Source: Candidatus Iainarchaeum sp. (GTDB taxonomy: Archaea > Iainarchaeota > Iainarchaeia > Iainarchaeales > DTGL01). From it: a DNA stretch of 41,131 nt. This document shows positions 18,001 to 21,000 of this stretch, piece after piece (positions within the stretch are counted from its first letter, which is position 1; the number at the start of each line of letters is the position of its first letter). The position numbers are program-made. Location: assembly GCA_038886995.1 (NCBI GenBank), contig JAWALG010000006.1, forward strand, positions 1-41,131, read 5' to 3'.

Positions 18001-21000
18001 TTATCTGCTAGATTAAGTTTTAATTTTCCGTTGCTTGCGTCCTCACAACAGAAGCAAAGGTCACAGCTTTCAGGCCTTTCTATCATCACTTTGCCTGCCT
18101 TGTATTCGAGTATCTTTTTTGGGCATGAATTCAATACATTTTTAGCAGTCTTCTCATCTATATCGCCTTCAAGCTTTGGTAATTCGTAATAAGCAATCAG
18201 CGCCGGCTGCCATTTTGCATGTTCTTTGCCGGTGTCAACAACAGCTTCCATTTCAAAGAACACCTGCTGGCCTTCCTTAAGCTTTACTATTGGGACATCT
18301 TTTGATATAATTTCAACATTTGAATCTGAGCACTTTATATCTGAACTGGTAACTATTTTTGGGCCGCGTTCTTTCAGCACAAGCTTGACTTTGTCTCCTT
18401 TTTTGTATATCTTTGGGTCTGTCCTTATGGGTAAAAGTGCAAGTCGCATGCCGATATACTCATCAAAAAGTACTGAGGAATTTTTATGTATTGCGATGTT
18501 CTCAATAGCTAGCACTGGCACATCACTCATGGCACATCTGCGTATAGCATTAATTATCTTTGTATTCGTGCCAGATACTTTTAGTATGCACATATTTTCT
18601 TTTTCTTCAATCTTCTTTATGTTCATGTAAAAACCTCACTTCTTCTTCCTGAACTTTTTCTTTTTCCTACAGCCATCGTGAGGAATCGGTGTAACATTTT
18701 CTATGTGCTTTATCTGCAAACCATTCCTTGTAAGGCTCCTTATTGCTGCTTCACTGCCTTTTCCGGGCGCGGTGCTTTTATTTCCACCAGGGCCTCTAAC
18801 CCTAACAGTCACTGAATATATGCCTAACTCCCGGGCTTTTTGTGCTATAACTTCAGCAACCTTCATTGCAGTATAGGGGGTGCCTTGCTTATGGTCTGCT
18901 TTTTCTACCATGCCACCGGTGCATTTTGCTATTGTTTCAGCACCAGTTATGTCTGTCAGAAGCATTAGTATGTTGTTCGGCGAAGAATATATATGCACAA
19001 CACCCTCTTTGGTCTTTTCACTCATCCGTTCCACCCCTTGATTTAGCTTTTGTCTGCTGCTGTTGTGAAGACCTTATTTTTTCTTCTATCTTTGGATCAG
19101 CAAACTTTATGCTGTCTTCTTCCTTCTTGAGCACAAGGTAACCCGGTGCAGATACAATGCGGCTTCCTATGCTTATATGCCCATGGGTTATCAATTGTCT
19201 TGCTTGCCTAATTGTCCTGGCCAGACCCTTCCTAAAAACTATTGTCTGGAGCCTCCTTTCAAGTAAGCTTTCAACCTTTATGCCTAAAACATCATCTATT
19301 GTTGCACCCTTTTTTAGAAGACCTATCCTTTCCAAGCTTTCAATCAATGCTCTCTGCTGCTCAACCCTTTTTTCGAGTGGCACTGCAAGCAACCTTCTAG
19401 CAACAATGCGTTTTCTTCTAAGGTATGCCTGTAAAATCAATAGTTCTCTTCTATTCTTTAGGCCATATTTTTCGCATAGTTCTCTTCTCTGTGCAATCTC
19501 ATCTTTTTCCCAAGGTTTTCTTGGATTCTCATACTTGTTCTTAGGCCTTTTAGGATCTCCCATCTAAACACCTACTTTTCCTTAGATTCCCCTTTTTTCG
19601 GCGCTGCTGCCGATTTTACTTCTTTCTTTATTACTCCAACAATGGTTCCTTTGCCTCTATGCGTACTCTTAGTTCTCTGGCCTCTAACAGGTAAGCCCCA
19701 AGCCAACCTAAGGCCTCTGTAGCTTTTTATTGTGTTCAACCTCTTTAGGTCTTCCCTCACTGCAAAGTCCAAATCACCCATTATTTTTTGTTCTGATTTT
19801 GCACTGTAAAAATTTTTCCTTCTGTTTAGGCACCACTCTGGCAGGCCTATTTTTTCAGGGTTTGTAACTATTGATTCCAGCTTAGAAAGCTGTTCATCGC
19901 TTAATTTCCCAACCTTTTCATCAAATCTTACGCCTTCAAGCCTTTCAAATTCTTTTGCGAAAATCATGGCAAGATTACGCCCAATGCCCTTTATTTTAGT
20001 AAGGGCTTGATATATGGGCTTGTTTCCATCTAAATCCACTGAACAAAACCTAACTATATACCTCACTGAGCTTTCCTTTGCTTTGTTTTGTGTACTGGCT
20101 CCAGCCACAGCTAGCTTTTCTGTTTTTTTTGCAGCTTCTTTATCCTTCTTTTCGCTCATTTCACTCTACCTTTTGCACCATTTTTACTATTTCTTCCACT
20201 GATTTGTTTTTAATATCGACCTTCTCTGCTGTGGGAAACAAGTGCCTTATATTGCACTTTTCCTTTTTTCCACTTTTGTAAATGATCTCAGCACCATCTT
20301 TGCTAACATCTATCACGACTACCTTTTCCCCTGCATTGCGACCTTTGCTTTTGTAGCATATTCGGCCCTTTTCAATTGCCATAAAATCACCTTACATCTT
20401 TGCCTTAAGCCCTTTCAAATATTTTATTATCACCGCAGCACAATCTTCTTGTGATACTTTATCAATGTTTATTGCGAGATCAAAGTTTTTAGCATCATAT
20501 ATGTTTACCCCTAAAAGGGATAGCAGGTTTGTTCTCAATTCATTTTCTTCTTCATTAAGCATCTCTCTTGCAGCCCCAACAGGTATTTTATCTCTTATTG
20601 TAATTTTTTCAGCCCTAGCTTTTTGTGAGGAATACAAAAAAATCCTCACGGAATTTTCTGCGACCCAGCAGGCTATTGGCCAGTCAATTATGATGTGGGC
20701 CTTTTTTGATTCTTCTTCTATAACCTCCTTGAGTTTTTCTGCAAATTTCTCTTCAGAGAAAACTTTGCCAGGAACACATTTCTCTCCACATTTTTTTAGG
20801 ACTCTGTCTACAAGTTTTTCTTTGGTTAGGTATTTCATCCCAAGCTGTAGCGCCAAAAGCTTACTTATTGTTTCAACACCACTTCCTGGAAGTGAATTTA
20901 ATGTTATAATCATCCCGATACCAATATACTTTATCGTTAAAATGATTTTAAAGCCTGCTCTATATACTTTATTTCCCTTATATCGCATTCTTTGAGCTTC

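Follow-up and report, generated by a model that had tools for sequence, protein, structure and literature searches.

In the genome of Candidatus Iainarchaeum sp. (G000, 88.6% complete), the gene of ribosomal protein eL14 runs directly into that of uS13, at a place where related orders and Micrarchaeota carry cbf5. Cbf5, Nop10, Gar1, L7Ae and a guide RNA make up the archaeal box H/ACA sRNP, and a review describes C/D and H/ACA particles as ubiquitous in archaea and eukaryotes (PMC8339473). Has the H/ACA system really been lost from this order? And if it has, which pseudouridine synthases are left, and what does the loss mean for the RNAs of these archaea?

Closed slots of cbf5 and nop10

The window, the whole stretch of 41,131 nucleotides that was analysed, contains on its minus strand the archaeal ribosomal superoperon in the order secY, an ORF without assignment, eL34, a cmk-like gene, eL14 and uS13-uS4-uS11-rpoD. 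The features relevant here are as follows.

20937-21275, minus strand: eL34 (NF003143, E 3e-15)
20392-20988, minus strand: cmk-like P-loop protein, likely start at ~20913 (TIGR02173, 66.5 bits against a cut-off of 102.1)
20161-20382, minus strand: eL14, 73 aa, on the upstream side of the cbf5 site (NF003320, E 2.6e-15, below cut-off)
20160..20160, minus strand: eL14/uS13 junction of 1 nt, position of cbf5 (~1 kb) in related orders and Micrarchaeota
19572-20159, minus strand: uS13, 195 aa, downstream flank (NF003140, E 1.4e-44)
19018-19563, minus strand: uS4, next gene of the operon (NF003139, over cut-off)
11763-12137, minus strand: L7Ae/eL8 (TIGR03677, over cut-off)
6930-8174, minus strand: aIF2-gamma, the best weak Nop10-like match of G000, which is not Nop10

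The Walker A motif of the cmk-like protein is without the lysine. A single nucleotide separates the stop codon of eL14 (20161-20163) from the ATG of uS13 (20157-20159). The usual operon positions of cbf5 and nop10 given in the preliminary description are borne out. The ancestral state can be read directly from families f34 and f37: uS13 comes next after cbf5 in 13 of their 14 Cbf5 loci, and in eight the gene sits between eL14 and uS13; the order eL14-cbf5-uS13 is also present in four of the five Micrarchaeota Cbf5 loci examined. All 30 loci examined within the order, chosen as the best of 55 matches in 56 genomes, have eL14 directly beside uS13, with hit-to-hit gaps from -50 to 259 nt, and the adjacency is likewise found in G052, G021, G212 and G213. 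The same junction is already in print for the DPANN archaeon GW2011_AR10, with L34e-L14e followed directly by S13-S4-S11, alongside five Asgard genomes with L34e-L14e-Cbf5 next to S13-S4-S11; in the accessible part of that paper, neither the missing Cbf5 nor its possible location elsewhere drew comment (PMC10833476).

The slot of nop10 is closed in a similar manner. On contig C5 of G000, 18 nt lie between the aIF2-alpha stop codon and the PAC2 ATG, while nop10 is flanked by these two genes in 12 of the 14 f34/f37 loci, the remaining two ending at contig ends. In the order this closure is documented for two genomes, G000 and G083; 18 order loci reached through frames with weak Nop10 matches did not include the junction, 3/3 of the frames tested being aIF2-gamma. 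Neither gene was found elsewhere in G000: there is no match to the Cbf5 model TIGR00425, and unfiltered hmmsearch of six-frame ORFs gave a best E of 3 for a Cbf5 profile of 14 sequences from the phylum and 0.029 for a 13-sequence Nop10 profile, the latter hit being aIF2-gamma and the next Spt4.

Distribution of the H/ACA proteins

Of the 215 genomes that represent the phylum, 196 belong to the order and the other 19 to different orders. Cbf5 is found in two of the 196, both atypical, versus 16 of the 19; the remaining nine order matches to the model reach at most 26 bits, and the two that were checked are Pus10 and a PUA protein. Full-length Nop10 is found in 0/196 order genomes versus 16/19. 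One 25-residue Nop10 match, in a 1168-aa frame, touches the cut-off in an order genome; leaving aside such frames of 700-1200 aa, the weak Nop10 matches of the order are aIF2-gamma (4/4 tested) and Spt4 (3/3 tested). The 400-aa frames among them had been considered as primase, which was ruled out by their identity as aIF2-gamma in 3/3 tested. For the genomes at least 87% complete (103, of which 96 in the order), Gar1, left out earlier, was searched as well, with a profile positive in three of four control archaea: it is found in none of the 96 versus six of the seven from other orders. Fibrillarin is present in 95 of the same 96 genomes and in 7/7 of the others, while Cbf5 is present in one and Gar1 in none, so neither chance nor incomplete bins can account for the absence. 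The loss of Cbf5 and Nop10 across the order is thereby confirmed as real. The sole H/ACA core protein kept is L7Ae, in the window and also in G083; this protein is common to box C/D RNPs, RNase P and the ribosome. An Rfam scan of 60 kb around the rRNA genes of G083 found no guide RNA.

Genome G083 permits the absence to be followed through a whole chromosome, since it is one contig of 1,241,428 bp with no N, is 99% complete and was read whole in 66 overlapping stretches. An unfiltered search of its 4,220 frames of at least 80 aa gave a best E of 0.41 for Cbf5 and 0.099 for Pus10, and with relaxed filters Nop10, Gar1, Nep1, TruA, RluA and TrmY (the last three with single-sequence profiles) all stayed at E 0.088 or worse, against positive results for TruD (1.5e-171) and fibrillarin (4.2e-103).

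Two other explanations can be weighed at this point. Most genomes of the sample are fragmented bins and G000 itself is incomplete, but the genes on either side of the missing one sit together on a single contig, fibrillarin is found in nearly every genome of the set, and the same search recovers Cbf5 almost throughout the Nanoarchaeota; single-contig genomes (G083, G027 and G179) are among those without a Cbf5 match, and the complete reading of G083 refutes an artefact of incomplete bins, which can be practically dismissed. It is also very improbable that Cbf5, Nop10 and Gar1 are present in a form too divergent to be recognized, or have moved and been missed. Several proteins of the order, eL14 and uS13 among them, do score below curated cut-offs, the genome search starts with a loose first look, and Nop10 and Gar1 are short. 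However, TIGR00425 is positive on bacterial TruB in 10/10 control bacteria, as well as on Pus10 and PUA domains within the order; unfiltered searching yielded nothing in either G000 or G083, the slots in both operons have closed, and three genes vanish together.

The two order genomes with a Cbf5 differ from each other. In G052 the gene lies alone on a contig of 1694 bp, shares 79% protein identity and 76.6% DNA identity (over 1005 bp) with a gene of an uncultured Thermoplasmatales archaeon, and clusters with Thermoplasmatota in the tree (99 SH-aLRT). The tetranucleotide similarity of this contig is 0.79 to its own bin and 0.81 to the Thermoplasmatales locus, no Nop10 or Gar1 was found in G052, and its eL14-uS13 junction is closed. 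The tiny contig, the Thermoplasmatales identity and grouping, the missing partners and the closed junction all speak against a native gene; it is probably a mis-binned Thermoplasmatales contaminant and less likely a recent transfer. The Cbf5 of G021 is a different case: a short protein of 268 aa encoded outside the operon, with motif II including the catalytic aspartate conserved in the alignment, a predicted model of pLDDT 88.5 whose best PDB matches are Cbf5 (TM 0.82-0.88), and no Pfam match to the N-terminal DKCLD segment or to a PUA domain. Contamination is ruled out here, as the contig matches its bin at 0.967 and the neighbouring genes match those of G000 and G083. In the tree the protein groups, on long branches, with short forms of Woesearchaeota and Pacearchaeota. 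Neither Nop10 nor Pus10 was found in G021 (83% complete), nor was Nop10 found in the Woesearchaeota genome whose short form is nearest to that of G021. The simplest reading is that this single genome has probably re-acquired a stand-alone enzyme.

How far does the loss reach beyond the order? The preliminary description held that the genes are kept in the sister orders, which is true for f33, f34 and f37 but not for f35 (G212, 87% complete) and f36 (G213, 79%), where Cbf5 and Nop10 were not found and eL14 adjoins uS13; G212 is also without Gar1, Trm1 and archaeosine TGT. In a tree built from nine proteins of 22 genomes, with 1345 columns and three Micrarchaeota as the root, support is 100/100 for the order, 100/100 for f35+f36 and 100/99 for f33+f34; the node that unites f35+f36 with the order has only 81/58. 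The best tree would thus place a single loss in the common line of the order and f35/f36, although two losses are possible. In an even sample of the Micrarchaeota, drawn from the phylum to which a Micrarchaeia genome is assigned, Cbf5 is present in 53 of 111 genomes and absent from 58, and Pus10 is also missing from five of the latter. Here the operon is disrupted on the upstream side of uS13 and has not closed up: 5/5 Cbf5-less genomes have neither eL14 nor cbf5 in that place, and no clean operon deletion was seen in Micrarchaeota. H/ACA loss is therefore not peculiar to this order. The same search of the Nanoarchaeota, taken as the phylum to which a Woesearchaeota genome is assigned, finds Cbf5 in 158 of 161 genomes of 0.5-2.1 Mb, which means that neither bin quality nor small genome size explains the loss; for both samples 88% completeness was requested, a nominal value.

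The remaining modification enzymes

The loss does not extend to the other guided system. Box C/D proteins had been described as kept, and all three are present, fibrillarin as counted above, Nop5 in five of five genomes tested and L7Ae in the window. Trm1 and archaeosine TGT, in turn, had been described as missing, and the larger sample agrees: Trm1 is found in 0/96 order genomes versus 6/7 in other orders, and archaeosine TGT (TIGR00432, cut-off 350) exceeds its cut-off in 0/96 versus 2/7. Another TGT is present in 65 of the 96, in frames of 303-524 aa, and 4/4 of those tested pass the bacterial queuine Tgt model TIGR00430. Nep1 is found in 0/196 order genomes versus 14 of the 19 others, all 14 belonging to f34; its absence lends weak support, because f33 and f37 are also without Nep1 and yet keep Cbf5.

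TruD was said to be kept, and it is found in 5/5 genomes tested. The corresponding claim for Pus10 stands for G000 and for 102 of the 159 order genomes with a completeness of 80% or more (103 matches, from which a cross-match in G021 is deducted), but not for the other 57, about one third, which include entire families; at 90% completeness or more, Pus10 is present in 34 of 55. The gaps track families: Pus10 is found in 0/15 of f11, 0/3 of f12 and 1/9 of f4, whereas f1 (12/12), f13 (20/20) and f14 (29/30) keep it. A profile built from twelve Pus10 proteins of the phylum, which in a separate search finds the G000 protein, one of its own twelve rows, at 1.8e-142, detects none in G083, G019, G150, G014 and G046 (95-99% complete). 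TruA is found in none of nine order genomes and is present in G214. A bacterial RluA/RsuA-type synthase was considered as a replacement for H/ACA and rejected, as it occurs in one of 215 genomes, a bin of 260 contigs. A synthase-like motif occurs in 43 frames of G083; a Pfam scan of 31 of them gave TruD as the sole synthase and no family for eight. TruD is the only detectable pseudouridine synthase of G083.

The enzymes known to make pseudouridine 55 are TruB/Pus4, Cbf5 and Pus10 (PMC7912444). Without any of the three, the Pus10-less genomes possess no known pseudouridine-55 enzyme. The usual target uridines are retained all the same: the three U of helix 69, placed by eye, are still there in both G000 and G083, and among the tRNAs called in three Pus10-less genomes 74 of 82 have U55, versus 38 of 41 in G000 (p 0.75). 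No sequence signature of a lost pseudouridine 55 was found, and sequence drift gives no sign of lost modification.

Proposed origin and consequences of the loss

The best explanation, which we hold with high confidence, is that Cbf5, Nop10 and Gar1 were lost before the order diversified, that the operons closed, that rRNA pseudouridine probably fell to about nil and that Pus10 was later lost in several families. In this course of events, cbf5 and nop10 would have been cleanly excised from their translation operons and the remaining genes would have closed up. The H/ACA loss would be part of a wider stripping that took Trm1, archaeosine TGT, TruA and Nep1 and spared box C/D methylation and TruD. 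With no Cbf5 to use guide RNAs and no bacterial-type rRNA synthase gained, it is most likely that the rRNA is free, or almost free, of pseudouridine. As regards the order of events, Pus10 may have made tRNA pseudouridine 54/55, so that the second job of Cbf5 became redundant and Cbf5 could go; the later loss of Pus10 in several families would then have left TruD alone and U55 probably unmodified. The earlier statement that these archaea lack RNA-guided pseudouridylation holds for the genes of Cbf5, Nop10 and Gar1, from whose absence we infer the consequence.

Known systems provide a comparison. In S. islandicus all eleven rRNA pseudouridines are reported to be H/ACA-guided and the stand-alone enzymes to serve tRNA positions 13, 54 and 55 (PMC11077068). 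In H. volcanii cbf5 can be deleted and Pus10 is described as essential (PMC7991803); without Cbf5, three 23S pseudouridines are lost and Pus10 still makes pseudouridine 55 (PMC7991803, PMC7912444, PMC5029457). An archaeon can thus live without Cbf5, but that deletion was made in the laboratory, whereas the present one is natural, order-wide, accompanied by the loss of Nop10 and Gar1, and coincides with missing Pus10 in 57 of 159 genomes. N. equitans, likewise a reduced DPANN genome with a trimmed modification set, is reported to be without Pus10 and TrmY (PMC7337903) and has an H/ACA guide RNA (PMC4652768), the opposite choice, in line with the Cbf5 kept by its phylum. Reduced genomes are known for such trimming in general. 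In reduced bacterial genomes such as Mollicutes, tRNA and rRNA modification enzymes are lost stepwise; there, stand-alone enzymes disappear, whereas here one whole guided system is gone and box C/D is kept.

In the main rival reading the genes would be gone and the modifications kept, with TruD, Pus10 where it is kept, or an unrecognised synthase having broadened its range so as to make pseudouridine 55 and some rRNA pseudouridines without guides. We regard this as unlikely, though it carries real weight. Eukaryotic Pus7 has many substrates, TruD is present in every genome tested, and U55 and the helix 69 uridines are conserved; these uridines are, however, also conserved for structural reasons and do not separate a loss of modification from a substitute enzyme. 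That Pus10 is essential in H. volcanii (PMC7991803) and that G021, where no Pus10 was found, has a short Cbf5 on a contig of native appearance, which could mean that it paid to recover the activity, also favour a substitute, but aPus7 and aPus10 of S. islandicus serve tRNA 13, 54 and 55 and no rRNA site in the reported data (PMC11077068), and the motif frames scanned in G083 yielded no synthase besides TruD, eight being without Pfam family. As for the cause, a shift from a hot to a temperate habitat that removed selection for stabilising modifications seems doubtful to us. Pseudouridine, archaeosine and Trm1 methylation form a structure-stabilising set, and the f34 loci that keep the whole set are GC-rich (45-61% where given); against this, Nanoarchaeota keep Cbf5 almost throughout and f33 keeps it at 26-27% GC. 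Supply of the enzymes or of ready-modified RNAs by a host is hardly credible: many DPANN archaea are host-dependent, but Iainarchaeota are treated as putatively free-living (PMC12892359), guides would need to match the symbiont rRNA, and transfer of such enzymes is thought unlikely even for N. equitans (PMC7337903).

A naturally H/ACA-less archaeal lineage was not found in print. Full-text searches found no report of the loss, which large DPANN survey tables and subscription papers may nevertheless show as a pattern; the accessible text of PMC8481954, PMC8997704 and PMC12892359 makes no mention of it, nor do three supplementary files of PMC7414124, whose large presence/absence tables may show the pattern. 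The trimming of modifications in reduced genomes and the dispensability of Cbf5 in the laboratory were already known, and the surprising part is the double loss of Cbf5 and Pus10. For f11, f12, most of f4, other families and some Micrarchaeota, we lean, with some reserve, towards ribosomes free of pseudouridine and tRNAs without pseudouridine 54/55, TruD being the only synthase; or else TruD or a yet unknown enzyme would make pseudouridine 55, of all tRNA modifications the most conserved, by a new route. The short Cbf5 of G021 and of some Woesearchaeota and Pacearchaeota, to which the same reserve applies, may be a stand-alone enzyme that modifies position 55 independently of Nop10 and has been spread by transfer.

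What the loss means can be stated more broadly. A large natural lineage without H/ACA shows that archaea can make ribosomes in the absence of these particles. It also shows that one guided system can go without the other, box C/D being retained in 95/96 genomes. Genome reduction alone is not the cause, because the equally small Nanoarchaeota keep Cbf5. Where these lineages are concerned, Cbf5, Nop10 and Gar1 ought to be left out of the universal archaeal markers. The genomes with the double loss of Cbf5 and Pus10 are natural test cases for the need of pseudouridine 55 and of rRNA pseudouridines, and they make up a short list in which to seek new synthase activity.

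Pus10, TrmY and the short Cbf5 group

The Pus10 proteins of Iainarchaeales are short, their frames being mostly 330-400 aa (loci L170, L171 and L179-L200), and the genes lie in varying neighbourhoods. An N-terminal, cysteine-bearing segment is missing from these proteins and is found in the Pus10 of G212, a neighbouring lineage also devoid of Cbf5, and of G214, a comparison genome from outside the order. TrmY was absent by profile search from G000, the genome under study, and from G083, a single-contig genome of the order. Four genomes from neighbouring orders (G198, G200 and G201 of family f34, and G196 of f33) keep Cbf5 with no Pus10 found, a state that resembles that of Nanoarchaeum.

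Short Cbf5 proteins form a group across G021 (an order genome), Woesearchaeota and Pacearchaeota.

L018:1234-2037, minus strand: short Cbf5 group, together with L089, L090, L091, L092, L094, L131 and L157

In two genomes that carry a short Cbf5, no match to Nop10 was obtained. The members of this group are candidate stand-alone tRNA synthases.

The cmk-like protein and the region upstream of uS13

20392-20988 of the window, minus strand: cmk-like protein between eL34 and eL14; related loci L044, L048, L053, L054, L058, L066, L070, L074 and L077

The Walker A lysine is missing from this protein in G000, in all eight of the other order copies read and also in G213, a neighbouring Cbf5-less lineage; it is present in the G214 protein. 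Most order loci have no cmk match in the eL34-eL14 interval. The cmk-like protein is possibly a conserved pseudokinase.

Five Cbf5-less Micrarchaeota (L311-L315) have a break in the superoperon on the upstream side of uS13. Frame translations revealed similar stretches in the DNA directly upstream of the uS13 start in several of the five, which may perhaps represent a leader RNA.

TGT, rRNA genes and AUA decoding

A second kind of TGT occurs in 65 of 96 order genomes (L283-L286 and 61 further genomes), all without archaeosine TGT, and the four order proteins tested were all of the bacterial queuine type; the window's own family has none (0 of 11).

The 16S and 23S genes lie together on contig C7 in G000 and are linked by tRNA-Ala in G083 (L209:12369-17378). 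The 23S deviates from several motifs that are usually conserved near helix 69-71. A tRNA-Ile with anticodon UAU is predicted both in G000 (C16:13309-13400) and in G083 (L207), which suggests that AUA may be read without agmatidine in these two genomes.
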